Of a stretch of 64,000 nucleotides of DNA, positions 491 to 61,600 are shown piece by piece. The position numbers and the translations under genes were made by a program. Source of the stretch: Haliotis rufescens (taxonomy: Eukaryota). Location: the NCBI RefSeq assembly GCF_023055435.1, contig NW_025964383.1, positions 34,100,001 to 34,164,000 of the forward strand, written 5' to 3'. Below the pieces are notes generated by a model. That model was not told the origin of the DNA, did no database searches, and saw nothing but the letters and a program-made list of their open reading frames with translations. Within the stretch, counting starts at the first letter, position 1. Every line of letters starts with the position of its first letter.

Positions 491-3400
491 TTAGCACCAC
501 CCGGGGCTCCAAACGCCTCCATACTTTCTTGGGTCAGATGCAGGATCTGGATTGGGATAATTGGCTGGCACCATCGTCTTCTTGTACTCCTCAAACCGAG
601 CACGCAACTTCGCCACCATGTCCGGCGTCTTCTGTGCAAGGTCGTTGTGCTCAGTTGGATCCTCTGGATATGTATCAGAATATTTGTTCGGGGAATAGAA
701 ATTTACAAACAATATACATTCATATATATTCTGCACATCTCTTGGAAACAGAAAGTGCCCTGTGGTATGGATCAAGTTGGTATATATAGGATGATGAAAA
801 CCTAACACAAACCAGGTCTTGAAAACCATCGGTATGTGTGGGTTCGTCTATCTATTGATTGTATTTTATTATGGGTCGATCAAATCACGAGCCGAATCCA
901 AACACACAGTATGTTAAGCTTTGCTGCAGGACATATAGATGTTTTTAGGTACTGTGTGATCACCACTTAGAAGATCTAGGAAAGACATGACCTATGACTC
1001 TTATGTAGAATAATTGTGTACCTCGAATGTTGAAGAGTTGGACTGGCTCATCTCCCTTGATGTAAACTGGCTCTTCATATATGTCATCCTGGGTTCCGTT
1101 CATGGGTCTGTACCAGCCATCAAGTTCTCCAGGGTACCCTAGGATCAGCTTGTAGTCTCCTACTCTAATACAAGAATGCAGACACCACCACATCAAACAA
1201 GTATCTGTTTGCTTTTAAGAATGTATTTAGTTCAATGGCATGTGATATTGCATGTGAAATAGGAAGGTCATCAATGTAAATGTAAAAAACGCCGTACTAA
1301 ATCATACAGGTTATTCTTACAGCCTGTTGCATGTTATCTAGTTTGATGATAAAACATCCTAAAATACCTTATTCCAGCATGACCTTCCATTGGAATTTCA
1401 AAGTAGTCAATGTTGTAGATGAACTCCGTCCTTGGTGAGGGGAGGCCGTTTCGAATCGAATTCCAAAGACTCATTCCATCAATGGTAGGTTCTTTGCCCC
1501 ATATACAATGAAAGGTGTAAAAACAATTCGTAATACCTTGCCGATTTGGGTTGTTTTACGAAACAACTGATCAACTTATCAACAAACGACACATTAAAAG
1601 TTACAAAATAGGTGTTCCTTATTGCAATTGTGAAATATCAATGAGAATCTCCCTACCTGGCGTTCCCCCAGCAGCAGATACTAAAGTAGGCTTCCAATCG
1701 ACAGCGTGGATCATCCTGTTTCGTGATAGGAGAGATACACATATATAATAAAACCCATGCTTAAAGCCACCAAATACTGACTGTTGCAACTCAATAATTT
1801 TAGCTTATGTACTAAATAATAAATAAGAGGTATTAATACAATTTTCTATAAGGTGCATTTTGAAGAAACTAACATATTATAAGATTCTGTGCGATTACAG
1901 TTGTGTAACAATGTGTAAATGATTATGCAAGCATTCGAAATAGGAAATTTTATACAGCCCTTTGCATTTTACTGACCAACCGTATGTTTGTTGAAGTTCG
2001 AATAAGGATCATTTACTTTACTTTGGATCAGGACTTTTTATAACAGGATTATTGGGTTTGGTCTAATTGTATGTTGTGGTGTTACCCATCGTATCTCGTC
2101 CTTGTCTTCTGGAGCCCAGCACCGTACATGAAGGATGCCCCCTTAGTGCCCCCCTCCCAGATCGTGAACTTCCCTCCCCTCAGAGGCCAGTTGTTGGAAT
2201 ACGCTTGAATATGACCTCCATTCTGAATTATCAATGGTTTCATACAAGGCACAATGACCTGATTAGCAGTGTGTTGAAACATAACTATCCAGAAAAACAA
2301 ATACCGTTTAATGTAACTGTCAAGAAAATGTATTTAACCCTTCGTTAAATGAAACAAATATGCACATATAGCAGTTCAACGTATTCTTGTCTCACACAGC
2401 TATCATTGGAAAAGTATGATTATAACATAGAACTTCTTGAGGGCATGTTTCTTTCATTCATAATTATAAAACTATCAACAGGAAAAAAATACTAGTTCTG
2501 CTGCCCTGGATTCCAGATTGACAAAAAGCATACTTTTGTTGGTTTTTGGCAAGCCATATTTAATGTTAAAAACGGGAAGTCTTCCCTTATGTGTCATAAT
2601 TCACAAAGCCGCCTCCGATTTCAAAAATAGGGTATCATTTATGCACAAAATTTATTTAAAATCTCGCCATTGATGACACTGAAAGTACTTACGTCTGCGG
2701 TGAATAAAATCAGAGTATTTTCAAACAAGCCCCGATCTTTCAGGGCCTGGGTAACATTTCCCACTGCCTCATCCAGGGCAGATACCATTCCTGTTGGGAA
2801 TGAAAATAGTTTGCCAGAGCTTTGAACAATATTTCAAATATGTCATGATGTGTGAACTTTATCCGGGTCAAATCAACTCATCAAGAGGAATACAAACTTT
2901 ACTGAAACACTAATCATGATGCTTTCTGAGAAACAAAATATGAGGACTTCAGGGACAAGTTTTTTTAAAGAAACAGCTGGCAAATACATAAAATTCCATA
3001 CCACTGTACTTTCTTCGCCCTTCGTTCATCACGTTCGGATACATATCCTCATACTTCTTCGGAACCTGTGATGTCAAATATTAAGGTACACACATTGACA
3101 AACGGAACATACCCATATACATTGTGTTTTGTTTTGTTTGTTGTTTAACGCCGCACTAAGCAATATTCCAGCTATATGACGGCGGTCTGAAAAATAATCG
3201 ACTCTGGACCAGACAATCCAGCGATTGATATCATGAGCATCGATCAACGCAATTGGGATCGATGACATGTATCAACCAAGTCAGCGAGTCTGACCACCCG
3301 ATCCCGTTAGTCGCCTTTTACGACAAGCATAGTCGCCTATTACGGCAAGTATGGGATGCTGACGACCTATTCTACCCCGGCATCTTCACGGGTCCATTTA

Positions 3401-6400
3401 CATTGTGCACAAATGACAAATCACCCTCAGGATCATCATCCTTAATCATCAAATTAGCATCAATCAGAAATTGCTCATTGAAATTGTAATGAATTGATTC
3501 AATCGTAAATATACATATGATCTCTTGACAACAATGTCTTTAGAAATAATCCAACTGCCGAGCATGTTGAAAAACAGACAACTTGCTCAACCCTCAAGAA
3601 AGGCTGGTAAAAGAAAACAGGTACACGTTCTCAATACTTTGTTTTTCATGTACCTCAATAGGAGCATGTACACTTTGATAAGGGAGGTACATGAACAGCG
3701 GCTGTGATACATCATGACGATGGATTATGTCAACGGCTCTCTGGGCGAATGTGAACTGAAATAAGGTAAAGGTAAGAAGGAATTTATTCAATGGTCGAAT
3801 CAGTACACGACTCCCAGAGGTGTCAGATGTATCACAGGAAATATGCATTTTAAAATTAGTCGTGATTGGTATAACAGTTGTAACTGAAGTTAGTAGCAAA
3901 ACAATGTCAAGTGGCATACTTACAGCAGAATATTCACCAGAATAGTTTCTTGCAGGAAGCTTGTTGTCCCTGAAGTCTAAGTAACCCCCTGTTGACATAT
4001 GAAATATTTACACTATTATAAATCTGCTTTCATGTACAGGGTTGATACTGAAACATAAATACCTGAAACCAAATCTAAAACAAGCTTCAAGACAACCATA
4101 CAAGCGGAATGATTCGCACCAGCAGTGTGAGTGAAGTAGTCTTCAGCCGCATTGTAATAACCAAAGAAAGTATCGAAGCCTCGGTACGTTGGTGTGCATT
4201 CCCACTTGCAGAAACCAAGATGCCATCTGAAAAGATATTTCATATGATGAGTATAAAGCGTCAAACAGCCATTTGAAAATAATCACATTTGTAATTTGGT
4301 GTATGAATGCTCGTACATTGGTGTATCTAAGAATGACAATTGTTCATCTAAAGTAACAAATACAGGTTTAAATATTACAGTATATCTTTCATTTATTCCA
4401 TGTATATCTTATCAGTATTTGTTTTGTTTTTTCCTCTTACTGTAGCATGATACCTACTTTCCGATTATGTGCGTGGCATAACCGAGTTTCTTTAGTTCCT
4501 GGGGGAGGAATGTATAGTTGAGGGGCACACACACGTTTTGGCCATGGTTTAGTGCCATATGCTGAATATGAATTTGCCTATGTAAGAAATTTCCATATGC
4601 AGACAGGTGACGTAAAATGAAAATCATATATTAAGATTAACAACAGAGAGATGTAGAACTACCAATACTTCTGGCTATTTCAAAATTCAACAAACAATAA
4701 AGTTAGACGTCTGACTACACGGCTCAAAGACAGGTCCAACCGAACAATGAATACAGGGGCAAATCTTATGGGAGCAGAAGAATATCACTAAAAACAACTA
4801 GTAATTGTTCAGGGACTTCCCACTTACATCACGATCTGAAGTGTAAATACCCAGCTCAATGCGTTGATTTACGTGAAGATCAGATGTAGAATAGGTCTCC
4901 AACAACCCATGCTTGCCTTAAAAGGTGACAATGCTTGTCGTAAAAGCCGACTAACGGGATCGGGTGGTCAGGCTCGCTGACTTGGTTGATGCATGTCATC
5001 GCATCCCATTTGCGTGGATCGATGCTCATAACGTGAATAATTGGATTGTCTGGTCCACACTCGATTATTTACAGACCGCCGTCATATAGCTGGAATATTG
5101 ATGAGTGCGGCGTTAAACAACAACCAATCTTTCAATCAATTTACGTGCTAATATTTATAAACTTAACAACATAGTTACCTGCATGCTTGCGTGGAAGTGA
5201 TCAGTCTGACAATACGGCACTTAGATATGTCCAATCAAACAATGAGTGAAGAGGTTAACCTCCTTTAAAGAGTGAGTGAGTGAGTGAGTATGGTTTTACG
5301 CCGCAGCAATATTCCAGCACTATTACGGCGGCGGCCACCAGAAATGGGCTTCACACATTGTACCCATGTCGGAAATCGAACCCGGGTCTTAGGCGTGACG
5401 AGCGAACGCTTTAACCACTAGGCTACCCGACCGCCCCTCCTTCAAAGAGCACAATAATATCACTAAATATAACTAGCAATTTTTCAGGGACTGATCTACA
5501 GTGTAAAGACATAATCACCTGCATGCCTGCATGGAATGGATACATTCCACTCATAAAAGCTGTACGGGATCTGAAACAATGAGTGACTGATATCTGTGTA
5601 TTACAATAACATTCGCACTTTAGCAAAGCAAGCTCCACCTACATCAAGTTTATTCTTCAATCCCCTGCTACTTTTGTTTGTTTTAAATTGTTAATAGAAA
5701 TGTATTTATATACAGTTTAAGGTAATGGCTGTTGCAACTTATTGATGTGTGTGTCATATTTTACATAATTAGAATTGGCGTTACAATCGATGTCTTTTAT
5801 TATGTTTCTTGTGTTTTCATAACATTGAGAGTGAAATAATATAACAAATTACGGGCTGCACAGAGGCTGGACATATGCATTTTCAAAGATGATTCCCTCT
5901 GTGGCCAGTTTGTCGATGTTTGGGGTCTTCATGTCCGGATTACGGAAACCGACATCATTCCAGCCTGTATAAACAAACATTTGAATGAACAGCCATGAGA
6001 GAGTAGAAACTTACATTTATAGTCCACTAGTCCTTATAATGATTCTATATAGCAAAACCCCTCAAAAATAGCAAATTTCTACTAGTCCTTAACTGTTAGG
6101 CAGTTCGGCAAGGATTATAGGACTAATGCCAATTTCCAACGCTGGAGTGTACACACCACTGTGTTAATATGTGTACTTTGAAATGACATATTGCTTCAAT
6201 GGCTACTTCACATTAAATCATAAGCAATTGCCTTCAATATCTACACTCACACAAACACAGGGTTTTCCATGAAAACTCGACTGTGAGTTGGTATACACAA
6301 CCACTGTGTTATTATATTTATTTTGACAAAAGACACATTTGGAATGTCATACTGTTACAGTGGGTATTTCTCATTAAATCACTTTGTAATTGCCTTCAAT

Positions 6401-8090: not shown

Positions 8091-9749
8091 TACACCCTTG
8101 CCGTCTTTTTTGGTTCTTTGCACCCTCACAATACACCGCAAACATGTTCTTTTGATTGTCATGTAACACCAAGACCTTCCTTTTTTCCCATTCATTCATT
8201 GCCATCGCTGGCTACCTCATCGTTGTTTTCGAATATCTCCCACGCGTTTTGGAAAGTATATATACTTTGCCTGAAGGAGACTACTTGAAGTAGTGAGTAT
8301 TTGGTAATCAAGTGAGTGAATAAGTATGCAATTTTTTTTTTATAGTATTCGAAATCAGGTACCCCGACGTACTTTCACCAATTTTCTTTAATTCTTGCAT
8401 AGGTTGCTGGGTCTCTTTCCTGACCTGGAATCCTCACGGCCCCCTCAAGATATGACACATGGTAGTAACGTCTGAAATAATTTGTAAGCTGTAGTGTACA
8501 GGGTAGGGTTTTGTTCAAGGGCTAATGCTTTTGAATAGGGCTCCAAGTGATAATTTTGCATCAAATGTACTGTGAGTGTTTCACGTCGGTTCACACATTT
8601 TAACAACATGACAAATAAAGTCAGCAAAGAATGATATGAATAATATTATTATTTATCATAACGATTTTTTTCTGAACATTGCTGTGTGGTCAGTAGGTAC
8701 CTAGCTTCCTTGGTCTAATGGTCTAATGCGCCGTGATTTACAATGCAGAATTATATCTCTTGGCCACACCACCCAGGATTTGCAGCATTTATCTGTCAGA
8801 ACCATACCTTTGCTGTTGGGTTTCAGCAAACTGTTTAAACATTGAATATCTACTTCTTGAATCACGATGGACTTTCCTCCTATATTTAGTTGACACGCCG
8901 TGATGTAACTACCGTTAACAGTCCAAAGTGGTGTTGGACCGAAATCACCAACTGTATCAGTGAATCAAAAATAAAGACACATGCAGTCGACGCACATATT
9001 TTTTTCATGTGACACAAACACGAAATGAAATTCACCCATCACACTTCATATCATTTAAGCCAAATGAACACTAATCAACATACATTTTACAGATTGCACT
9101 ATTCAAATGTGTTCATAGGCTCGAGCCAGGCATCATGTTCTTTTTGGTCGCCTGTTATCCGGTTGTAGTCTCTAACCCTGTGAACAAGCAATATCCGCCG
9201 CTCATCTTGTTGTTCCTACTATGTATTGTTCAGTATGAAGTTATGTTTGAACACAGGAATTCTCACGGTTAAAGTCAAGCTCTTGAAGTATTAAAACGCA
9301 ATTTATTGGTGTTCGTTCCTTGGGTTGATGTATTACTGCTCGGCTATAACCTAATACATTATTTCCGCATATCCTTCTATTGCAGGGTGAAAGTCGTCAA
9401 GACTTTATACGAACTCGGTCGTTGACGACGGGAGACACTCCTGATAGATTCTAGGTGTCTTATACAATTTCCCTTTTTCAGGAAAAAAATAGATATTCAT
9501 TTCCAAAGCGGTGGTACGAGTAATGTTATTATAGATCAGTGCACACCTGCGAGCATATAACATGGCAAAAGATGATCACTCTGGAATAATCGTTGTAGGA
9601 AAATGACAGGGTAGGGTCATACTTATATGTAGATATATGCTGGGATTAATACAGCTGCACGGCAAGTAGGTTATTGTGGACGCCTGTGTGACAAATGACA
9701 TGTGTTCATGCGGTTGACACATGTATTGCTGTGGGGGCTCTATCTAGGC

Positions 9750-10038
9750 CGCCGTGAAGATCCTGATTAGACTACATCTGGGTCAACCAATGCTTGTCGT
9801 AAGAGGTGACTAACGGGATCGGGGGGTGGGGGGGGGGGGGGGGGGTGGGGGGGGTGGGGGGGCGCGTTCTCAGGCTCGCTGATTTGATAGATGCATGCCA
9901 AAGTATCACCAAAGTATCACACTTGAGTTGATCGATGATGTGATTGACTGGATGGTTTAGACTCGATTATTCACAGACCGCCATTGTATAGCTGGAATAT
10001 TGGTGGAAGCAGCGTTAAACAAGCAACGAACGAACAAA
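9750..10038 (+). mobile_element. SINE family A copy with internal G-run expansion
   Basis: CCGTGAAGATCC start, GTCGTAAGAGGTGACTAACGGGATC, about 40 nt of G-rich sequence replacing GGGTGG, and the shared 3' tail. Confidence 0.8.
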
Positions 10039-18846: not shown

Positions 18847-19230
18847 CTTAAAATCTCTTACAATTTTGGAAGTTTTAATATTTTCCCGAGTATACTCTAC
18901 ACTTTGTTACCACTAGTGTGTCTATTGGGCCACATGGCATCTGTTTCGGCGGAAAGTCGAGACTGATTATTCGCTGGCGTTGACGTTTTACATTTATCTC
19001 ATATAAGCGTATCATTACGTCACATGACCTTGACAGGATCCGCTCGTCGTCAATTACCGATTCTGAATTGGAGTTTCTCTGCGATACATCGATTGTCAAT
19101 GGCTTCACCCACGTTCTAAATGTCCATTATCTATGTTATGTTTGGCATCACTCCTATTTTATACTGATATGCCTGATTATAACTGAACTATTGTTTAAAT
19201 TAATGTTCATCTGCACATTGAAGAATCAGG

Positions 19231-22200
19231 TACAATACGCAACCGCTACAGTACTCACCAACTTCAATACGCACCCGCTACAATACTCACCAATTACAAT
19301 ACGCACCCGCTACAATACACACCAGGTACAATACGCACCCGCTACAATAATCACCAACTACAATACGCATCTGCTACAATACATACAAGGTACACTACTC
19401 ACCCGCTACAATACTCGCCAACTACAATACGCACCCCCTACAATACGCACCAAATACAATACGCACCCTCTACAATACACACCAGGTACAATACGCTCCC
19501 GCTACAATACTCGCCAACTTCAATACGCACCCGCTCGAATACTCACCAAATACAATACGCACCCGCTACAATACACACCAGGTATAATACGCACCCGCTA
19601 CAATACACACCAAGTACAACACGCACCCGCTACAATAATCACCAACTACAATACGCACCCGCTACAATACTCACCAACTACAATAGGCACCCGCTACAAT
19701 ACACACCAGGTACAATACGCACCCGCTACAATAATCACCAACTACAATACGCACCCGCTACAATAATCACCAACTATAATACGCACCCGCTACAATACAC
19801 ACCAGGTACAATACGCACCCGCTACAATAATCACCAACTACAATACACACTCGCTACAATACACACCAGGTACAATACGCACCTGCTACAATAATCACCA
19901 ACTACAATACGCATCTGCTACAATACATACAAGGTACACTACTCACCCGCTACAATACTCGCCAACTACAATACGCACCCCCTACAATACGCACCAAATA
20001 CAATACGCACCCGCTACAATACACACCAGGTACAATACGCACCCGCTACAATACTCGCCAACTTCAATACGCACCCGCTCCAATACTCACCAACTACAAT
20101 ACGCACCCGCTACAATACACACCAGGTATAATACGCACCCGCTACAATACTCACCAACTACAATACGCACCCGCTACAAGACACACCAACTACAATACGC
20201 ACCCGCTACAATACACACCAGGTACAATACGCACCCGCTACAATAATCAACAACTACAATACGCACCCGCTACAATAATCACCAACTATAATACGCACCC
20301 GCTACAATACACACCAGGTTCACTACTCACCCGCTACAATACACACCAGATTCACTACTCACCAGCTACAATACCCACCAGATTCACTACTCACCAGCTA
20401 CAATACCCACCAGGTACACTACTCACCCGCTACAATACACACCAGGTACACTACGCACCCGCTACAATACACACCAGGTTCACTACTCACCCGCTACAAT
20501 ACACAGCAGGTTCACTACTCACCCGCTACAATACACACCAGGTACACTACGCACCCGCTACAATACACACCAGGTACACTACGCACCCGCTACAATACAC
20601 ACCAGGTTCACTACTCACCCGCTACAATACACACCGGTTCACTACTCACCCGCTACAATACACACCAGGTACACTACGCACCCGCTACAATACACACCAG
20701 GTACAATACACACCAGTTGCACTACTCACCCGCTACAATACATACCAGGTTCACTACTCAACCGCTACAATACATACCAGGTTCATTACTCACCCGCTAC
20801 AATACACACCAGGTACAATACACACCAGGTACACTACTCACCCGCTACAATACACACCAGATTCACTACTCACCCGCTACAATACATACCAGGTTCACTA
20901 CTCACCCGCTACAATACACAGCAGCTACAGTACACACCAGGTACACTACATACCCGCTACAATACACACTAGGTTCACTACTCACCCGCTACAATACACA
21001 CCAGGTACACTACTCACCGCTACAATACACACCAGGTACACTACTCACCCGCTACAATACACACCAGGTTCACTACACACCAGGGAACGCTACTCACCCG
21101 CTACACTACTCACCCGCTACAATACACACCAGGTTCACTACTCACCCACTACAATACACACCAGGTACACTACTCACCCGCAACACTACTCACCCACTAC
21201 AATACACACCAGGTACACTACTCACCCGCTACAATACACACCAGGTACACTACTCACCCGCTACAATACACACCAGGTTCACTACTCACCCGCTACAATA
21301 CACACCAGGTTCACTACTCACCAGGTACACTACCCACCCGCTACAATACACACCAGGTTCACTACTCACCCGCTACAATACACACCAGGTTCACTACTCA
21401 TCCGCTACAATACACACCAGATTAAACACACACCAGGTACACTACTAAACCGCTACACTACTCACCCACTACAATACACACCAGGTACACTACTCACCCG
21501 CAACACTACTCACCCACTACAATACACACCAGGTACACTACTCACCCGCTACAATACATACCATGTTCACTACTCACCCGCTCCAATACACACCAGGTAC
21601 AATACACACCAGGTACACTACTCACCCGCTACAATACACACCAGATTCACTACTCACCCGCTACAATACACACCAGGTTCACTACACACCAGGAACACTA
21701 CTCATCCGCTACAATACACACCATGTTCACTACCCACCCGCTACAGTACACACCAGGTACATTATTTACCCGCTACAATACACACCAGGTACACTACTCA
21801 CCCACTACAATACACACCAGGTGAACTCCTCACCCGCTACAGTAGACACCAGGTACAATACACAGCAGGTACGCTACTCACCCGCTACAATAATCACCAA
21901 CTGTAATACGCACCCGCTACAATACACACCAGGTACACTACTCACCCGCTACAATACATACCAGGTTCACTACTCACCCGCTCCAATGCACACCAGGTAC
22001 AATACACACCAGGTACACTACTCACCCGCTACAATACACACCAGATTCACTACTCACCCGCTACAATACACACCAGGTTCACTACACACCAGGTACACTA
22101 CTCACCCGCTACAATACACACCAGGTAAACTCCTCACCCGCTACAGTAGACACAAGGTACAATACACACCAGGTACGCTACTCACCCGCTACAATAATCA

Positions 22201-24866
22201 CCAACTCTAATACGCACCCGCTGCAATACACACCAGGTACACTACTCACCCGCTACAATAATCACCAACTACAATACACACCAGCTACAATACACACCAG
22301 GTACACTACTCACCCGCTACAATACATACCAGGTTCACTACTCACCCGCTACAATACACACCAGGTTCACTACTCACCCGCTACAATACACACCAGGCAA
22401 CTACTCACCCGCTACAATACACAACAGGTACAATACACACCAGGTACAATACACACCAGGTACACCACTCAACCGCTACAATACACACCAGGTACACTAC
22501 TCAACCGCTACAATACACACCAAGTACATTATTTACCCGCCACAATACACACCAGGTAAATTACTCACCCGCTACAATACACACCAGGTTCACTACGCAC
22601 CCGCTACAATACACACCAGGTACACTACTCACCCGCTACAATACACACCAGGTACAATACACACCAGTTACACTACTCACCCGCTACAATACATACCAGG
22701 TTCACTACTCACCCGCTACAATACACACCAGGTTCACTACTCACCCGCTACAATACACACCAGGCAACTACTCACCCGCTACAATACACAACAGGTACAA
22801 TACACACCAGGTACAATACACACCAGGTACACTACTCAACCGCTACAATACACACCAGGTACACTACTCAACCGCTACAATACACACCAGGTACATTATT
22901 TACCCGCCACAATACACACCAGGTAAATTACTCACCCGCTACAATACACACCAGGTTCACTACGCACCCGCTACAATACACACCAGGTACACTACTCACC
23001 CGCTACAATACACACCAGGTACAATACACACCAGTTACACTACTCACCCGCTACAATACATACCAGGTTCACTACTCAACCGCTACAATACATACCAGGT
23101 TCACTACTCACCCGCTACAATACACACCAGGTACAATACACACCAGGTACACTACTCACCCGCTACAATACAAACCAGATTCACTACTCACCCGCTACAA
23201 TACATACCAGGTTCACTACTCACCCGCTACAATACACAGCAGGTACAGTACACACCAGGTACACTACATACCCGCTACAATACACACTAGGTTCACTACT
23301 CACACGCTACAATACACACCAGGTACACTACTGACCGCTACAATACACACCAGGTACACTACTCACCCGCTACAATACACACCAGGTTCACTACTCACCC
23401 GCTACAATACACACCAGGTTCACTACACACCAGGGAACGCTACTCACCTGCTACAATACACACCAGGTACACTACTCACCCGCTACAATACACACCAGGT
23501 TCACTACACACCAGGGAATGCAACTCACCCGCTACAATACACACCAGGTTCACTACTCACCCGCTACAATACACACCAGGTACACTACTCACCCGCTACA
23601 ATACACACCAGGTTCACTACACACCAGGTACACTATTCACCCGCTACACTACACACCAGGTACACTACTCACCCGCTACAATACACACCAGGTTCACTAC
23701 ACACCAGGTTCACTACTCACCCACTACAATACACACGAGGTACACTACTCACCCGCAACACTACTCACCCGCTACAATACACACCAGGCACACTACTCAC
23801 CCGCTACAATACACACCAGGTACACTACTCACCCGCTACAATACACACCAGGTACACTACTCACCCGCAACACTACTCACCCACTACAATACACACCAGG
23901 TACACTACTCACCCGCTACAATACACACCAGGTACAATACACACCAGGTACAATATACACCAGGTTCACTACTCACCAGGTACACTACCCACCCGCTAAA
24001 ATACACACCAGGTACAATACACACCAGGTACAATACATACCAGGTACAATACACACCAGGTTCACTACTCACCAGGTACACTACCCACCCGCTACAATAC
24101 ACACCAGGTTCACTACTCACCCGCTACAATACACACCAGGTTCACTACTCACCCGCTACAATACACAGCAGGTTGACCACTCACCCGCTACAATACACAC
24201 CAGGTTCACTACTCACCCGCTACAATACACACCAGGTTCACTACTCACCCGCTACAATACACACCAGGTTTACTACTCACCCGCTACAATACACACCAGG
24301 TTCACTACTCACCCGCTACAATACACACCAGGTTAACTACACACCAGGTACACTACTAAACCGCTACACTACTCACCCACTACAATACACACCAGGTACA
24401 CTACTCACCCGCAACACTACTCACCCACTACAATACACACCAGGTACACTACTCACCCGCTACAATACATTCCAGGTTCACTACTCACCCGCTCCAATAC
24501 ACACCAGGTACAATACACACCAGGTACACTACTCACCCGCTACAATACACACCAGATTCACTACTCACCCGCTACAATACACACCAGGTTCACTACACAC
24601 CAGGTACACTACTCATCCGCTACAATACACACCATGTTCACTACTCACCCGCTACAGTACACACCAGGTTCACTACTCACCAGGTACACTACTCACCCGC
24701 TACACTACTCACCCACTACAATACACACCAGGTACACCACTCACCCGCTACACTACTCACCAGCTACAGTACACACCAGGTACAATACACACCAGGTACA
24801 CTACTCACCAGCTACAGTACACACCAGGTACAATACACACCAGGTACACTACTCACCCGCTACAGT
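19231..24866. repeat. 16-bp-unit tandem array (about 5.6 kb, about 350 units)
   Basis: Units TACAATACACACCAGG, TACACTACTCACCCGC, TACAATACGCACCCGC, TACAATAATCACCAAC; strong A/C strand bias. Confidence 0.95.
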
Positions 24867-27800
24867 GAACGCCTGCGTCTTGCCACGGCCATGCCTGGTA
24901 AGCTTGAAGGATGTTATACCACGTGACGCGCATTTACATTCCCCTTTCCGTGTTGTGATCCTTCGGAAAGTCACTTGACAATTCCGAATGCAATCCTGTG
25001 TTATGAGCACAAAATTGATGGTGATTTATAATAACCCCCAAAATGCAGCATTAACCAGCCAACAAACATCACTTGCAATTTCCTGTGATTTTAAGTACTG
25101 ACCGCATATGTAGTGACTGCTTGTCGATGTCATATGTCGTCCATTTGATTGTGTTCCGTATTTTCTTATTACTATTTTTTGGATGAGAATGCTGAGCTGC
25201 ATTCTTCGGGAATAAACATTTCCGTAACAAATGCTGAGCTGTATAATTAAAATTATCGATGTCCAAGTGATTACCTAATGCTTTTAGTACATATATTGTT
25301 CATATTCATCCTATATCAATTCCCAATTCCAGTGTAATATGTATTTCTTTAATTGTTCTCTTCCACAGGAACATTTAGGACTATATCAAATATTTCCCAC
25401 GGGGAAATTATCTTCATCCAAGAAGAGCACCCCTGAGCTTAATGTAGATGACCTGTATTAATTTTATCGGGCTATTGTTGAAACATGATACAAAATTAAA
25501 TTTGAACAGCATTTCTTACAAGGCACACCTGTCATCTCGATGTGGGAATAAAGCGACAAAACCCTTTCTACATCCAATAGAAATTGGTAAAAGTCGATTG
25601 TACAATTCCGACTACATCATGAGCCTGTGTTTATGAATCACTATCAAATAGTCCTGATACCAGGTTTTCGCGAAAGAAGCCCATTTCTAGGGTGAAAGTG
25701 GGTATGTTGACGACAGGAGAGGTACCAACGTAATTTCTAACCCGTAATCGGCGGATCGGGACTGTCAAGGGACGCAACCCTGCACAACAATTTTCAGCTC
25801 TTGTCATCACTGGACCACACATGTTCATTTAGAAAAATAGGCGTGATTCCAGTGGCGTGATTGACAGAAGACGTTGAACATGAAAAATGAGTTTCTATAA
25901 AATAACATCGTCAATAAAACTTACTTTTTCCATTGCTGGGACGTTGAACTGTTTCACATCTGCCAACATAACATCCTGCCCTGGAGACACATCACATCGG
26001 AGTTGCTGCGACGAGAAGGCAACAGTATCGCAACCCCTGATGCTCTGACAGCTATGTATGCATAACTTGATACCCTTAGGGCCAGGTAAGGGTTTCCCTG
26101 CTGATATTTGTATGTTTGTAGCGATACAAAGGAAATACCGAATGACAAGAACGACTCGCGCCATCACTGGGTGTCAATACAATAACACTTTTAATAGCGT
26201 CCAAGACATTTAACTGTAACCTGGTAGGTTGAGCTTCGATAAATCAATCCACATATATCGATCATTTTGTGTGCGAGTCATACATATTCAGCACCAAGAC
26301 TCACCACATATTGACGTCAGGCACGACATCTTAAAACGTTCGGATTGTGTGAACAAACTGTGTCTGTTAACCTGTTTGAGAGGATTGGTTTTTTTTCTAA
26401 AAATTGGCAAATGTGTTGGAATAATTGGAGAAACCAATTAGAGACGCAGGCTAAAAAGTATTCTCCTTTGGTGAAACCCACAGGCATTCGAGACGACTAT
26501 CAGTAGATCCCTGTACGACCATAGGTCTCTAGTCCGCCACCGATGCCGCCTAAAATACACGTACACATGGGATTTAAGATGTTATCCAGGAGACCATCAG
26601 ATACAATTGGGATCACGAAAACGTACATACCTACATTAAAAAGACATATCATGATGTTGTTCTCAAATACTGGGTGTGTGAATTGTGTGATTTTACGCCG
26701 CTTTTAACAATCTTTCAGCAATATCATGGCGGGGCACACCAGAAATGTTTTACACATTCGAACCCGAGCCTTTGGCGTGACATGTGAATAAAGACACTAG
26801 GCCACCTCAGCGTACTTAATCATACATTACGTGTAGGCTGTTTTACGACGCAGTCAGCAATATGTCTGCAGTATCACAGAGGCCCATAAATCAGCGATCC
26901 AGGCAAACCAAAGGAGGATAGCATGATCAGCTATTAACTATCACCGCCAGTGTATGATGACAAGGACTCAGATCACAAATTGGATACAGAGGACCTTATT
27001 TGTCATGGAATCCCAAAGGGGGCTAAAACAATCACCCAGCTCAAACATTGGAAACAGATCGAAATCACACAAACATTTTTGAAAAGTAACTACAAAACAT
27101 GTATTCCGAATAGAGTCATTTGTTTAATATCTGCCGACAACAAATTGTGAATTACAACCACAAAAATACATCCCGGCTATGAAGTTGAAATACATGCAAG
27201 TCAGTATCTGAACACACTTCAACACTGACTATCAATTTCAGTATAATGAACAAAAAGCGTCAGTTAACAGGACCCCTCACGGAATAGAGTAATCAAATAA
27301 ATCTGCACCATGCATTTTTAAATATTCAAAACAGAACACGAAACCGCTTATTATTGATGAATGATGCTTGAAAAAGATCAAAATCGTATTCATACATGTT
27401 TGATGTTAATGTAATAACTTGAATTTTCATTTTTTTTTAATAGTGGAACGTGTTTCTATGTGCACTGTATACATCTGTACTATTCCCGAACAATCGTCCT
27501 GCTAATTGGAATTGTTGATAGATCGCGATAACAACAACTTATTTCCTACAACTCATCGATACTGGAAAGTGTGCGTACTTTAGGGGAAATTGTTACAATG
27601 ATAAAACGATAAATGTCCACGTTCGTGCGCTTAACTCTAAATAGGCTAGTGGTTATTTAACGTCAGCTCGTCATGACAAAGCACATGGCTTGACCCCCCA
27701 AAATGAGATCAGTGTTTATTTGTATGAAGTATTTCGTACAATGCCCATGATCGCCCGACTCCCCGAGGCAAGAGTGTAAATGAAGAGTGGAAACTGGACT

Positions 27801-32614: not shown

Positions 32615-32798
32615 GTGAGTGAGTGAGTGAGTGAGTGAGTGAGTGAGTTTGATTTTACCCCGTTTTTAGCAATATTCAAGCAAAATCACAACGGGGAACA
32701 CCGGAAATGGACTTCACACATTGTACCCATGTCGGGAATCGAACCCGGGTCTTCGGCGTGACGTGCGATCGCTTTAACCACAAGGTTACCCGACCGCC
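32615..32798 (-). mobile_element. SINE family C copy
   Basis: Colinear with 5273-5436; long (GAGT)n tail. Confidence 0.85.
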
Positions 32799-44100: not shown

Positions 44101-46126
44101 TGGTGTTAATTTTGTATGGGTGTTGGCCATACAGTCAGATATTTACGACTTTACCACTTTTGCGTTTCTTGTTTTGCAGAGTATATTTTTGAAATGAAAA
44201 CTGGCTATCTTACATTTCCGATGTGTAACGTTGTTTTGTTTGATGGACATTTGGAGGACATGTCCATTTTGTATGCATCAGCGACAAAAATGATATAGGG
44301 TATCATCATTATTTGAGAGCAATTCATAAACACATGCTCATGATCATGATATTGTCGTAATCGTAGAATGGACTCTGCTTTTATTAAAGATGTCTAATGA
44401 ATATGGAAAGAGCTTTGGGGCTTTAATTTTCATGTATTTGAGGTGGGGGTACTTACCTGCAATTGGGGGTCCAATCAAGTAGCCTGTTCCACAGAAAAAC
44501 ATAACCACACCAACACCAGTGGCAAAGTTTTGAAGTCCCAAAATGTCAAGTGTTATTGTATTCATGAGTACCCAAACACCTCCTGTGTACAATCCGAGGA
44601 AAAACCCATAAAGATTTTTCAGCTGCGAAGATGATTGGAATAGAGGCACAAAAAGTGTGAAAATAGCCATGATGCCAGCGGTTGATGTATGCAAAATTGC
44701 ACTGCCAATGTCCTCGTCATTGGATGCAATTCCTGTGAGAATACGCGAGATAACGCTCCCTGTGCCGGACAATGATATCACGAAGGAAGCGTCCTTGAAT
44801 GTTGACCCCTCTTTCATGAAAAAGTCTGGTAGAAATAAATATTCTGTTGATGCACCAAGAGCAAAACAAAAAATACTGACTGCAAAAAGTAGGAACGATA
44901 TATTCTTGACGACATTCACAATCCCGGCACAGTCCCCACACATTAAGAGTATTATTTTGCTTCTGAGTGTTCCACCTCCCGAAAACTGTCTTTTTTTCTT
45001 CCGTTCAATCTCAGAAGGGCGCATCAGCATACCAGTAGCAGAGGCATGAAACACAATTCCTCCAGTTATAAGAAAGGCTCCATGGAATCCGTATGTATCT
45101 AGCAGGTACTGAACTAAGACTGGGTGCACAAACATGCCTAGTCCTGCCCCAGCGACACAAATCCCTTGAGCAACAGCTGCGTTTTCAGGAAAGTAGTATC
45201 CAAGGACAACAATTGCACCGGTCCCCGCCAGACCCGTGCCTAAACCTGAAATAGCATGCAACAATTAGAAGTGATTTGTTTCTATTGTGTCTTCACAGTT
45301 ACTTGACCACAAATGACAGTAAACCTAAGACCATTGCTTAAACTGGTTATCCAAGACGAGATCAGGGGAGACATACAGATATTGTTGAAATTTTACATCC
45401 GCAACGTTGTGAGTGTGTATTTCTTTCATAAAACATGAACTATACTTCTCTTTAAGAGTTACCTCCATAAACGCTGATAAATATATGCATTTTGTCTTAT
45501 TATCTTGTTGCGGAGTTGAACCATATCCAGCTCTAAACCATTTGGATATATTAATTACGATTAGGAGAGCAGCAGCCAAGTTCTCCGCGAACAGCACTTG
45601 GAAGTTGAAAAGTGCTCCTTAATTGTAAACATTCCTAACTCATATACATTTAGAATATTTTGCGATGGGTGCAACACTGCCAATATTTTGACAGCAGGTA
45701 GCGTTCTTGTGCAGATAAGCGTCTTTTTGTAGATCTTTGTAAACGCCTCATCCAGCACTATTCCGGCTATGTGACGGCGGTCTGTAAAAAATCGAGTCTG
45801 GACCAGACAATCCAATGAATGATATAGTGAGCAACGATCCACGCAATTGGGATACGATGACATACATCAACCAAGTGTGGCCGAGCCTGACCACTCTATC
45901 AATTTGGTTGCTTCTGACGACAAGCATTAGGTTGGGGGGGACCTATTCTAACCCAGAATCCATACATCCACACGCGGCTGAAGATCTTTCGTCAGTGGTG
46001 ACTGTGATATGTGAGTTGGGAATCTATTCATTTCTAATCCATTTTAGAATGTGACAGAAATACGAATATGACTTCCGAACATACCTACAGTTGAAATGTA
46101 TTTGTTCAACAATATCCTGGTTTTTT

Positions 46127-55629: not shown

Positions 55630-58600
55630 GAGTGACTGCAGGGGACTGCAGTAGGAGTGAGGGATATGTGTGGAGGTGACTGCAGTAGGAGAGAGGGATA
55701 TGTGTGGCGGTGACTGCAGTAGGAATGAGGGATATGGGTGGCGACGATTGCAGGGGACAGCAGTAGAAGTGAGGGATATGTGTGGCGGTGACTGCAGGGG
55801 AGTACAGTTGGAGTGAGAGATATGTGTGGCGGTGACTGCAGGGGACTGCAGTAGGAGTGAGGATATGGGTGGCGGCGACTGCAGTAGGTGGGAGGGATAT
55901 TTGACTGCCGTAGGAGATAGGGATATGTGTGGCGGGGACTGCAGCGGACTGCAGTAGGAGTGAGAGATATGTGATGTGTGGCGGTGACTGCAGGGGAGTA
56001 CAGTAGGAGTGAGGGATATGGGTGAAAGCGACTGCAAGGAACTGCAGTAGGAGTGAGGCATATTGGTCGCGGTGACTGCAGGGGACTGCAGTAGGAGTGA
56101 CGGGGTTGGGTGGTAATGACTGCAGTAGGAGTGAGCGATATGTGTGGCGGTGACTGCAGGGGACTGCAGTAGGAGTGAGGGAGATAGATAGATAGATATT
56201 CTTTATTTCCTCCAGATATTGAAGATACATATCATATATGATATTATGTATAATTACAGAGCTGTATAGTAGTACAATTGAACAATATTATTAGAAATGA
56301 TAACTACAAAATGCATGACAATCAAGCATTCTTATAACTGTTTTGTAACAGATACAGCCATTTCCTACAATGTCTTGACACAATAACCATAAGGTCACCC
56401 CATAGACTTTGAGATAAAGAGCTAACACACTCAGGCATACCGCCAAGTAGTACAGACAGGATTATATCATCGTCCTCACTACATAGTCTTGCAAATGTAG
56501 AGACATCTATCACATCACAAATGATTTCAAAAAGTTCATTTCTGTCATTCATATTCAATGTACAATACAGAAAGACATGCTTCATAATATCATGAGCTAC
56601 AATTCCACATCGACATTCCCTAGATTCCATATTTATGCATCCCAGCCGTACAAGATGAGACAGGTTTGGGAACTGTTCAGGACGTTCAAGTGCAAGTAGC
56701 CAGAGTCTGTGTTCTTTATCATTACGTAGCGAAACATATCTATTTAAGTTAAGTCTAGATAGCAGCTTAGAGCATACAGCTTCCTGGTCTGCAGAAATAA
56801 TCCTTTCCTTAACAATATCAGACCATGCCTTTTTACTTGGGAAGCTACATTTAATTAGATAATCTTCTTTTTCTGCATTAAGATTGTATTTTTTGACAAG
56901 TCTGAGCATGTTATATACAGGTGACAAAGCACATCGTTTTTTGAAGTTATCCAACGCTATTTCGTATCTAAACTGCCCAAGGCGAGTAATGAATACCTTT
57001 TTAAAGACATAGCTGTAACTGGATCGGCATAGTTTTCCAAGTAGTAACAGTGACTGTTTGTCAATATAGGATTGGAGAGATATCAAGCCCATGTTGTCCA
57101 CAGCAACAGTACCTGATGTACATTTTGGAAGGCCCTGTATTTTTCTACTGAAATAACGTTGAATAACTTCCAGCATATCGTATTCTTTGAGGGTTAATAG
57201 CCCCCAGACATTACATCCATAGAGTCCGCATGGGAGTATCACTCGTTCCCAGATCCTTTTTGCTGGGATTGGATTCATGCCTCCAAACTTTAGTCCAGTA
57301 TCGTTATTACTATTTATTAACATTTTTAACTTTTCACAAGCTAATTGTGTTCGTTCTAAGGAAGACTTATCAGAGCTAATCCTGACACCTGCATATATTA
57401 TAGATTGCTGAAGTGGAACACAGATACTGCCCAAGTACAGTGATTGAGAGCAGATAAATTTACGCTGCACATCAAATATTAGAACAGCGCTTTTCGTGAC
57501 ATTGTACTTAAGCTGCCATTTATATGCATACTGATTTACAACATTGAGAAGATCTTGAAGGCCTGTTGGTGAGCTACTAAACAGTGTTGTATCATCTGCC
57601 AAGAGCTGGCCTGGAGTATGTGCCCACGGCAGATTTAGTCCTTGCTTAGAGCGTTCCAGCTCGCATAACAGATCATTTATATATAATGTAAAGAGCCAAG
57701 CAGATATAACTCTGCCTTGACCAACTCCTTGGCGTACATGAAACAAGTCTGATCTAAAGCCTGCAAAGCTGACATAGGAGTACATAGACATATAAGACCT
57801 ACGTAGTATTCGCCATGTTTTACCCGTGATACCAAGGTCATAAAGTTTTAGAAAAAGGCCATCTAGCCATACCCTTTTAGGAGTGACGGGGTTGGGTGGT
57901 AATGACTGCAGTAGGAGTGAGCGATATGTGTGGCGGTGACTGCAGGGGAGTGCAGTAGGAGTGAGGGAGTTGGGTGGCGGTGACTGCAGTAGGAGTGAGG
58001 GATATGTGTTGTCGGGGACTGCGGTATGAGTGAGGGATATGTGTGGCGGTGACCACAGTAGGAGTGAGGGATATGTTTGGCGATCACTGCAGGGGACTGC
58101 AATAGGAGTGAGGGATATGTGTGGCAGTGGCTGCAGGGGACTGCAGTAGGAGTGAGGGATATGTGTGGCGGTGATTACAGGGGACTGCAGTAGGAGTGAG
58201 GGATATGTGTGGCGGTGATTACAGGGGACTGCAGTAGGAGTGAGGGATATGTGTGGCGGTGACTGCAGGGGAGTACAGTAGGAGTGAGGATATGTTTGGC
58301 GGTGACTGCAGGGGACTGCAGTAGGAGTGAGGGATATGTGTGGCGGTGACTGCAGAAGGAGTGAGGGATATGTGTGGCGGTGACCACAATAGGAGAGGGG
58401 GATATGGGTGGCCGTGTCTGCAGTAGGAGTGAGGGATATGGGTGGCGACGATTGCAGGGGACTGCATTAGGAGTGCGGGATATGTGTGGCGGTGACTGCA
58501 GGGGAGTACAGTAGGAGTGAGGATATGTTTGGCGGTGACTGCAGGGGACTGCAGTAGGAGTGAGGGATATGTGTGGCGGTGACTGCAGAAGGAGTGAGGG

Positions 58601-61600
58601 ATATGTGTGGCGGTGACCACAATAGGAGAGGGGGATATGGGTGGCCGTGTCTGCAGTAGGAGTGAGGGATATGGGTGGCGACGATTGCAGGGGACTGCAT
58701 TAGGAGTGCGGGATATGGTAGGCGGCGACTGCAGGGGACTGGGGTAGGAGTGAGGGATATGTGTAGCGATGATTACAGGGGACTGCAGTAGGGTTGAGAG
58801 ATATGGGTGGCGACGATTGCAGGGGACTGCAGTAGGAGTGAGGGATATGTGTCGCGGTGACTGCCGGGGAGTACAGTTGGAGTGATGGATATGTGTGGCG
58901 GCGACTGCAGGGGACTGCAGTAGGAGTGAGGATATTGGTGGCGGCGACTGCAGTAGGTGGGAGGGATATGTGTGCCGGGGACTGCAGCGGAGTGCAGTAG
59001 GAGTGCAGTAGGAGTGAGGGATATTGGTGGCGGTGACTGCAGGGGACTGCAGTTGGAGTGAGGATATGTGTGGCGGTGACTGCAGGGGACTGGAGTAGGA
59101 GTGAGGGATATCAGTGGCGATGACTGCAGGGGACTGCAATAGGAGTGAGGGATATGTGTGGCGGTGACTGCAGGGGACTGCAGTAGGAGTGAGGGATATG
59201 GGTCGCGGTGAATGCAGGGGACTGCAGTAGGAGTGAGAATAGGGGTGGCGATGACTGCAGGGGACTGCATTAGGAGTGAGGGATATATGTGGCGGCGACT
59301 GCAGGGGAGTACAGTTGGAGTGAGGGATATGTGTGGCGGTTACTGCAGGGGACTGCAGTAGGAGTGAGGGATATGTGTGGCGATGATTACAGGGGACTGC
59401 AGTAGGAGTGAGGGATATGTGTGGCGGCGACTGCAGGGGACTGCAGTAGGGTTGAGAGATATGTGTGGCGGTTACTGCAGGGGACTGCAGTAGGAGTGAG
59501 GGATATGTGTGGCTGTGACTGCAGGGGACTGCAATAGGAGTGAGGGATATGTGTGGCGGTGACTGCAGGGGCCTGCAGTAGGAGTGAGGGATATGGGTCG
59601 CGGTGAATGCAGGGGACTACAGTAGGAGTGAGAATATGGGTGGCGATGACTGCAGGGGACTGCATTAGGAGTGAGAGATATATGTGGCGTTGAGTGCAGG
59701 GGAGTACAGTTGGAGTGAGGGATATGTGTGGCGGTTACTGCAGGGGACTGCAGTAGGAGTGAGGGATATGTGTGGCGGCGACTGTAGGGTAGTACTGTTG
59801 GAGTGAGGGATATGTGTAGCGGCGACTGCAGGGGCCTGCAGTAGAGTTGAGAGATATATGTGGCGGTGACTTCAGGGGACTGCAGTAGGAGTGAGGAATA
59901 TGTGTGGCGGGGACTGCAGTAGGAGATAGGGATATGTGTGGCCGTTACTGCAGGGGACTGCAGTAGGTGTGAGGGATATGTGTGGGGATGACTGCAGGGG
60001 ACAGCAGTAGGAGTTAGGGATATGTTTGGCAGTGACTGCAGTAGGAGTGAGGGATATGTGTGGCAGGGACTGCAGAGGACTGCAGTAGGAGTGAGGGATA
60101 TTTGTGGCGGGGACAGCAGTAGCAGTGAGGGATATGGGTGGCGGGGACAGCAGTAGGAGTGAGGGATATGGGTGAAGGCGACTGCAGGGAAATTGCAGTA
60201 GGAGTGAGGGACATGGGTCGCGGTGACTGAAGGGGACTGCAGTAGGAGTGCGGGATATGGGTGGCGGCGACTGCAGGGGACTGCAGTAGGAGTGAGGGAT
60301 ATGTGTGGCGATGATTACAGGGGACTGCAGTAGGAGTGAGGGATATGTGTGGCGGCGACTGCAGGGGACTGCAGTAGGGTTGAGAGATATGTGTGGCGGT
60401 GACTGCAGGGGACTGCAGTAGGAGTGAGGGATATGTGTGGCTGTGACCACACTAGGCGAGAGCGATATGGGTGGCGGTGAATGCAGTAGTAGTGAGGGAT
60501 ATGGGTGGCGACGATTGCAGGGGACTGCAGTAGAAGTGAGGGATATGTGTGGCGGTGACTGCAGGGGAGTACAGTTGGAGTGAGGGATATGTGTGGCGGT
60601 TACTGCAGGGGACTGCAGTAGGAGTGAGGGATATGTGTGGCGATGATTACAGGGGACTGCAGTAGGAGTGAGGGATATGTGTGGCGGCGACTGCAGGGGA
60701 CTGCAGTAGGGTTGAGAGATATGTGTGGCGGTTACTGCAGGGGACTGCAGTAGGAGTGAGGGATATGTGTGGCTGTGACTGCAGGGGACTGCAATAGGAG
60801 TGAGGGATATGTGTGGCGGTGACTGCAGGGGCCTGCAGTAGGAGTGAGGGATATGGGTCGCGGTGAATGCAGGGGACTACAGTAGGAGTGAGAATATGGG
60901 TGGCGATGACTGCAGGGGACTGCATTAGGAGTGAGAGATATATGTGGCGTTGAGTGCAGGGGAGTACAGTTGGAGTGAGGGATATGTGTGGCGGTTACTG
61001 CAGGGGACTGCAGTAGGAGTGAGGGATATGTGTGGCGGCGACTGTAGGGTAGTACTGTTGGAGTGAGGGATATGTGTAGCGGCGACTGCAGGGGCCTGCA
61101 GTAGAGTTGAGAGATATATGTGGCGGTGACTTCAGGGGACTGCAGTAGGAGTGAGGAATATGTGTGGCGGGGACTGCAGTAGGAGATAGGGATATGTGTG
61201 GCCGTTACTGCAGGGGACTGCAGTAGGTGTGAGGGATATGTGTGGGGATGACTGCAGGGGACAGCAGTAGGAGTTAGGGATATGTTTGGCAGTGACTGCA
61301 GTAGGAGTGAGGGATATGTGTGGCAGGGACTGCAGAGGACTGCAGTAGGAGTGAGGGATATTTGTGGCGGGGACAGCAGTAGCAGTGAGGGATATGGGTG
61401 GCGGGGACAGCAGTAGGAGTGAGGGATATGGGTGAAGGCGACTGCAGGGAAATTGCAGTAGGAGTGAGGGACATGGGTCGCGGTGACTGAAGGGGACTGC
61501 AGTAGGAGTGCGGGATATGGGTGGCGGCGACTGCAGGGGACTGCAGTAGGAGTGAGGGATATGTGTGGCGATGATTACAGGGGACTGCAGTAGGAGTGAG

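Follow-up and report, generated by a model that had tools for sequence, protein, structure and literature searches.

The 64,000-nt window analysed here (Haliotis rufescens, RefSeq assembly GCF_023055435.1, contig NW_025964383.1, positions 34,100,001 to 34,164,000 of the forward strand) contains a headless short interspersed element (SINE) whose 5' end is formed by a module of about 75 nt. Our analysis suggests that this module is probably an undescribed structured RNA, common to SINEs, three kinds of long interspersed elements (LINEs) and unrelated RNA viruses, whose fold alone generates or protects an exact, uncapped 5' end. It would represent either a new class of exoribonuclease-resistant RNA (xrRNA), the first that genome-resident retrotransposons use instead of a promoter, or a self-cleaving ribozyme of a new class. 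Among the specific readings we tentatively prefer the first, with a probability of about 0.45: an undescribed candidate xrRNA at which XRN exonucleases would trim read-through transcripts to a precise 5' end. The SINE type itself is known; its RNA fold is apparently undescribed and its distribution is surprising.

The predicted fold opens with a 5'-terminal H-type pseudoknot of two helices, S1 (4-6 bp) and S2 (7-8 bp), with an A-rich AGAAU loop. S1 pairs the C-run at the 5' end with the G-run that opens the S2 loop. After the pseudoknot and a conserved G, a helix P2 is predicted to enclose an internal loop and the near-invariant hairpin P3, pairing the bases before the conserved core with those after UAA. 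We analysed this structure in two ways. First, a scan with the core as search pattern found 63 metagenome stretches, plus viral and genome contigs. Family filtering started from 38 families; the AGAAU loop was in range in 31, the threshold for S2 was passed by 30, and 23 were parsed pair by pair. Strands were then paired within their own family or across families in a permutation test with 30-31 families from unrelated contigs, which gave z values of 8.9 for S2, 7.8 for P2 and 3.2 for S1. Second, in an alignment of 24 hand-picked sequences (A2), the corrected structure paired 85.8% of the cells with 90 double changes, a result reached by none of 500 shuffles (slid controls, 38-54%). Double changes occurred in six of the eight S2 pairs and all five P2 pairs, and the S1 junction pair was GC in 12 rows, CG in 5, GU in 2 and unpaired in 5. 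In S2, G-U occurred 24 times and A-C twice, which points to the structured strand as the sense strand. P3 is invariant in A2, largely since the core served as search pattern; its support consists of one compensatory variant (L093) and pair-keeping changes at the hairpin base. In SINE copies with a duplicated hairpin unit, the conserved letters are kept only in the downstream unit. A loose pseudoknot pattern run over this genome found SINE derivatives only. There were also 25 matches in prokaryote genomes, most of them without upstream structure, and those that have it look like eukaryotic contamination.

The original prediction, made from the window alone, was thus right that the element begins with a covarying pseudoknotted RNA, and wrong in part about its helices. 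Of the four proposed, the inner stem is present, and a change in the fragment at 27020 fits it; the terminal hairpin followed by UAA is present as well, including its tandem duplication. The outer stem linking the 5' end to the bases after UAA failed (z = -0.7, only 43% of A2 cells paired), as did the crossing GGGU/ACCC pairing (z = -0.8, no double change on A2), to which the supposed pair-keeping change at 8440 belongs. The supported alternative (S2, P2 and S1) pairs the same G- and C-runs differently. The first structure arose because minimum-energy folding, which cannot model the pseudoknot, pairs the 5' end with downstream G-runs in the SINE family; this pairing fails in other families.

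The 5' end at position 3394 had been taken as natural and precise, and the target-site duplications (TSDs) agree. We checked 65 distinct full-length SINE copies, a set weighted to young copies, and could call a TSD in 39 and none in 26. In 29 of the 39 the element stopped exactly at G1, six had one extra base and two had two; the remaining two, with 5 or 7 extra bases, were weak 7-mer calls. The headless end is real because so many TSD-called copies stop at the same base, and none of the 39 was preceded by a tRNA or 5S head. The claim that several window copies share this start must be qualified: within the window there is a single exact occurrence of the 13-mer start, and the two matches with two mismatches are at chance level. 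The 5' ends of the copies at 4873 and 9750 are decayed, the fragment at 8440 scored only 10.6 bits (E 0.38) with our model R1, and the fragment at 27020 was not reported by R1. Across the genome (1.33 Gb) a first-look search gave 5,973 SINE candidates, and exact 32-33-mers counted 16,704 duplicated versus 1,565 single hairpins.

The element is an LP-type SINE, with a head derived from a LINE, so its headlessness was already known. Its head is homologous to the LINE-derived 70-bp domain and lacks a tRNA part, its TSDs vary, its short repeats are terminal, and its LINE-type tail aligns locally to all four LINE 3' ends tried (0 of 300 shuffles each). In the accessible part of PMC4758252, the first ~70 bp of mollusc LP SINEs match the 5' ends of Nimb-17_LMi, I-3_DR and RTE-9_CPB; the head is proposed to be a promoter, and an analogy to the ingi/L1Tc promoter-ribozyme is raised. 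Hdi_LP, Hmi_LP, Lsa_2 and Sgl_LP resemble our element in the missing tRNA head, the ~70-bp head in common with LINE 5' ends, the TSDs, the short terminal repeats and the length (Hmi_LP consensus, 255 bp). Compared by eye, the head motif is that of the scallop 'Nimb-17 homology' block in the supplement of the same paper, with the same C-run, AGAA loop and core. The assignment is based on this shared motif and on the layout of the element. What differs is the treatment of the head, which in the accessible text is a putative promoter, with no RNA structure, HDV fusion or viral copies (HDV, hepatitis delta virus). A literature search that did not reach most subscription journals, Repbase or Dfam found only PMC4758252 on this head, no description of its RNA fold, no paper printing the core in any of four spellings, and no title on xrRNAs in retrotransposons. 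As to an RTE-type partner in this genome, a candidate we rejected, endonuclease matches were distant only, and all five matches to R1 at those places proved to be SINE copies. Two further observations concern the SINE family. A 57-nt tandem array (L202-L210, G000:C27:288426-288975) is built only from the SINE's pseudoknot half, and six copies (L121, L127, L141, L143, L147 and L149) have a broken S1 and 400-1200 nt of upstream sequence in common, so that they are probably passengers in a larger repeat.

A search for the module at the 5' ends of autonomous LINEs had been proposed, and there we found it, in this genome and in other organisms. Here it lies 502-655 nt upstream of the match to the first open reading frame (ORF1) in 29 of 30 ORF1 loci, and the two full LINEs scanned encode endonuclease, reverse transcriptase and RNase H. 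Metagenome loci have it upstream of an endonuclease ORF in six cases, three of which were scanned with Pfam and confirmed; two further loci have a gag-like ORF1 downstream of it, and one has another ORF behind a TAA repeat. These LINEs are presumably of the RTE, Nimb and R4/Dong kinds. A LINE family without the HDV-like fold starts with U-CCCCG in 25 of 26 copies, preceded by random flank and no extra G, and TSDs confirmed this start in four of four copies. In multi-copy families of other organisms the shared sequence likewise stops at the S1 base, with the core some 44-61 nt away. Loop insertions change the distance from core to S1, yet the end stays at S1; the end thus follows the fold and not a fixed spacing. 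There are exceptions. Four contigs of presumed termite-gut origin (L032, L042, L047 and L054) have 324 nt upstream of the module in common (85%), which may reflect an orthologous locus or a longer element. One locus, L043, carries two diverged intact modules in tandem before a single LINE ORF, and L085 is a satellite of ~590 nt with one to three exact 74-nt tandem modules and a truncated one.

In the main two-ORF LINE family of this genome, the module does not set the 5' end. A 57-nt leader precedes it in 25 of 29 loci (one truncated), flush against the module, and can be read as a minimal HDV-like ribozyme fold in which P4 is nearly absent. The leader has P1 with a G1-U wobble, P2, P3, L3, the P1.1 GG and the J4/2 C, and an HDV descriptor matched 22 of the 25 leader-bearing loci. 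Over 129 module sites the descriptor gave 23 matches, all in this family. Rfam model RF02682 aligned end to end to the leader in four of four loci and scored 24.7-28.5 bits, short of the gathering score of 44. The TSD check of LINEs covered 8 of 10 loci, and in three of the four leader-bearing LINEs processed the TSD abuts G1 of the leader. The leader-module junction is kept in 794 of 827 exact module copies, and all 40 sampled copies have the whole leader, two with 1-nt indels. Pairing of the HDV P2 strand extends as far as the module's first C. Between LINE lineages ~61% identical in ORF1, the module is 93%, the leader 95% and the next 100 nt 93% identical, and among 51 LINE module blocks none of the 42 core paired sites varied, against 10 variable sites elsewhere. 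This similarity may reflect recent swapping among lineages, not selection.

The leader-bearing family (L173-L200, L214-L253, L266, L270 and L272, in G000) is young, and presumably Nimb-like. Nimb is absent from the list of ribozyme-bearing clades in PMC5786205. A 230-nt 5' block is 93-95% identical across the L171-L200 lineages, with many copies clustered on few contigs, and suggests repeated 5'-end swapping; several of these copies appear inserted in other LINE sequence. A gill-symbiont scaffold (L117:2949-6017) carries, beside a bacterial ORF, the 5' half of a two-ORF LINE of eukaryotic type, module included; this is likely host contamination or misassembly, less probably a real insertion.

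Outside retrotransposons, three scans returned the same eight viral contigs with loop and core, and another scan gave seven plus two chance matches. Seven of the contigs are small (six distinct), and the eighth is a 212-kb DNA-virus contig. Pfam identified RdRP_3 in three of the six distinct small contigs, RdRP_4 in one and a Peptidase_A21 capsid in one; the sixth had no Pfam match. All six have the module on the coding strand, after the last long ORF and at a distance of 14-119 nt from the end of the contig. In three of them it begins 6, 10 and 23 nt after the stop codon, and in two it stands in tandem. The viral copies keep six to eight of the eight S2 pairs with family-specific sequences, and the stretch examined behind the module in the small contigs held no SINE body or tail. 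Some of these contigs may be endogenous copies. L339 and L343 matched the core without the AGAAU loop and were treated as chance, and in a loose viral scan, among 80 of the 120 listed stretches, R1 scored only one contig, already known. In the DNA-virus contig (L345, L094) the module at ~3981-4057 is intergenic, with an intact pseudoknot and a weak P2; a long ORF ~120 nt downstream looks kinase-like by eye, with no Pfam match in the part scanned. The presence in RNA viruses makes both a DNA promoter and efficient self-cleavage less likely, as an RNA virus would maintain no DNA promoter and a cut there would remove the 3' end of its genome.

Coordinates of the module and of neighbouring SINE features in the 64,000-nt window.
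Feature	Positions	Strand	Remark
LP-type SINE copy, duplicated-hairpin subfamily	3127..3394	-	~268 nt
S1 5' strand (nt 1-6), 5' terminus of the element	3389..3394	-	covariation z 3.2
S2 5' strand (nt 7-15)	3380..3388	-	z 8.9; extra base in the window copy
S1 3' strand, G-run in the S2 loop	3374..3379	-	
Pseudoknot loop L3, conserved AGAAUA	3368..3373	-	near-invariant columns; present in viral copies too
S2 3' strand	3360..3367	-	one pair broken in the window copy
P2 5' strand (C-run)	3351..3355	-	z 7.8
22-nt hairpin unit, first copy, degenerate	3329..3350	-	subfamily changes where the second copy is fixed
Second hairpin unit, conserved	3307..3328	-	GCUU, hairpin P3 with 7-nt loop, UAA
P2 3' strand, G-run after UAA	3303..3305	-	
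SINE 3' tail	3127..3200	-	resembles 3' ends of the genome's two-ORF LINEs; CAAA-type repeat at the end
Target-site duplication, 5' copy	3395..3407	-	13 nt, abutting G1
Target-site duplication, 3' copy	3114..3126	-	one mismatch
Second, older SINE copy	4868..5127	+	5' end decayed
Older single-hairpin SINE copy, interrupted	9749..10030	+	
Older single-hairpin SINE copy	45742..45970	-	

The window also contains a tRNA-headed SINE with the same LINE-type tail as the headless one (5270-5445 and 32633-32798, both minus strand). Strong GC skew over ~19000-26000 (about -0.6) and ~57000-64000 (about +0.6) probably marks tandem repeats on opposite strands.

We then compared the module with known ribozymes. 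Rfam gave no relevant match, either in the window at gathering score or, with E values up to 5, in 14 + 6 loci, which bears out the original statement that the module does not fit HDV, hammerhead or twister. By these Rfam searches the consensus cores of the hammerhead, twister and pistol families are missing from the module, and a permuted twister was rejected on its core consensus. HDV-like ribozymes (R2, RTE, Ingi/L1Tc, R4, LOA) are alike in position, in portability among LINE clades and in a paired 5' base. They differ in that the module has no P3/L3 hairpin nested in its pseudoknot and no P1.1, its supported helices come in another order, no HDV model matched at E up to 5, and in the main LINE family a canonical HDV-like fold stands as a separate unit, upstream of it. 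A rearranged HDV with GCY/GGC as P3 was also discarded: the third position is often G or A, and the GUCG/CGAC register has a compensatory variant. Hatchet, in the accessible part of PMC6561176, shares a hairpin, a short linker, P2, a conserved internal loop, AAA before the P2 3' strand and a 5'-terminal paired base. In contrast, the module has no UGGG or GCAG blocks, no P4 and no Rfam match, and the element starts six bases upstream of the hairpin that would be the counterpart of P1; hatchet, with its four stems, was rejected on A2.

How could such a fold give rise to precise 5' ends? Under the xrRNA reading, SINE and LINE copies would be transcribed by read-through from host promoters, and XRN1 or XRN2 would degrade the uncapped RNA from its 5' side until stalled at the S1 base. 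What is thus protected, an RNA ending in a LINE-type tail, would then be reverse-transcribed by a LINE protein and inserted, its 5' end being precise. Ends with a 5'-OH are not attacked by XRN enzymes, and an HDV-like cut upstream would leave such an end, so that the leader would be kept. As a guess, docking of the hairpin domain on the AGAAU loop might lock the knot, or the domain might interact with a host factor. A passive roadblock would explain together the flush 5' ends, the retained upstream HDV cut, the tandem copies and the viral position. The S1 3' strand and L3, closed by S2, would encircle the 5' strand in a loop of ~13-14 nt. Known xrRNAs stand at the start of viral 3' untranslated regions (UTRs) and in tandem (bioRxiv 10.1101/2024.12.17.628992; PMC8374639, as far as accessible). 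Those of class 3 (ST9a, dianthovirus, polerovirus) and class 1 (flavivirus) are likewise compact pseudoknots with the first helix at the protected 5' end; the second helix has 8 bp in the module and 9 in ST9a. In the accessible text on ST9a, the base of the first helix is where Xrn1 stops (bioRxiv 10.1101/2024.12.17.628992); in the module, it is DNA insertion ends that lie at the base of S1, which would be the corresponding place.

Several points weigh against this reading. The module lacks the stacked P1/P2 and L2B hairpin of class 3, its S1 loop being wholly the S2 strand (comparison with the accessible text), and the junction around the 5' end of class 1; known xrRNAs, as far as that text goes, also lack the extra conserved hairpin domain and the location at retrotransposon 5' ends. 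The fold is a prediction from sequence, and the ring that defines xrRNAs is only putative in the module. In three other viral contigs the module lies 75-206 nt from the stop. A block of XRN leaves unexplained why the core hairpin is near-invariant from SINEs to viruses and why the module stays intact behind an HDV-like fold. An endonucleolytic cut would account for ends without an extra base no less well than trimming would, HDV P2 pairing up to S1 could mask a cut at the module edge, and the cross-family sample was gathered with the core as search pattern.

An alternative is that the module docks a host factor, with the ribosome or an initiation factor as the likeliest candidates, and that the 5' end comes from another step. 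Such a dock would provide cap-independent translation of uncapped LINE RNA, bring SINE RNA near nascent LINE protein, and act as a translation enhancer in viruses, whose 3' UTRs are also where such enhancers are located. The near-invariant core common to elements with unrelated proteins, the intact module behind the HDV-like fold in lineages far diverged in ORF1, and the conservation of only the downstream hairpin copy in the duplicated SINE all speak for it. The 7-nt loop (G-UANNAGG-C) may also resemble a tRNA T-loop. Yet a dock leaves the 5' ends on the first base of S1 unexplained, the high identity of the 5' block may stem from recent swapping, as leader and following sequence are equally similar, and no Rfam enhancer or IRES (internal ribosome entry site) model matched. 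We regard it as unlikely, though by a small margin the best placed of the alternatives to the xrRNA.

Second or third in rank, and likewise unlikely, is a new class of self-cleaving ribozyme with the corrected fold, which would cut immediately 5' of S1. Whether G, U or C, the first nucleotide pairs at the base of a helix, which is also seen in the products of HDV and hatchet (PMC6561176, accessible part), some bases are conserved though unpaired, and the module fills the slot that HDV-like ribozymes occupy in other LINEs, with no HDV fold upstream outside the one family among the 129 descriptor sites. In the HDV fusion the would-be cut site is buried in a helix, as the survival of the fusion would require. 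However, the argument from viral 3' UTRs stands against a cut, as do the two intact tandem modules before one LINE ORF at L043, a single case, and the lack of a known catalytic motif; retention of the HDV leader across LINE lineages suggests an added activity. Self-cleavage, as originally proposed, is therefore less probable, being disfavoured by the intact module behind the HDV-like fold in LINEs and by its place in viral 3' regions. Least likely, and very improbable, is an internal RNA polymerase II promoter acting mainly as DNA with a secondary RNA fold, as suggested for the LP head (PMC4758252, accessible part): the module is 5'-terminal in SINEs and LINEs, its core is a short inverted repeat readable by a DNA-binding protein, the duplicated form outnumbers the single one and L1Tc carries promoter and ribozyme in one sequence (PMC3383444, accessible part), but the module is intact in RNA viruses without a DNA stage, its helices covary, the core-to-end distance varies, one LINE family starts with U and no extra G, and a start site at the module edge would have removed the HDV leader.

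The accessible text of a 2021 review describes xrRNAs as characterised only in viruses and lists those of cellular genomes as not yet found (PMC8374639); the module is a short candidate for such an RNA. In RNA-templated gene insertion the stability of the 5' fold appears to limit efficiency (PMC11331408, accessible part), and a compact 5'-stabilising module would be relevant there. That a near-invariant core is common to the 5' ends of retrotransposons and the 3' UTRs of RNA viruses suggests either a conserved partner in the host or an activity contained in the module itself, and also an exchange of RNA modules between retrotransposons and RNA viruses. For the elements themselves, the module offers a candidate answer to how SINEs without a polymerase III head and LINEs without an HDV ribozyme may obtain exact 5' ends.

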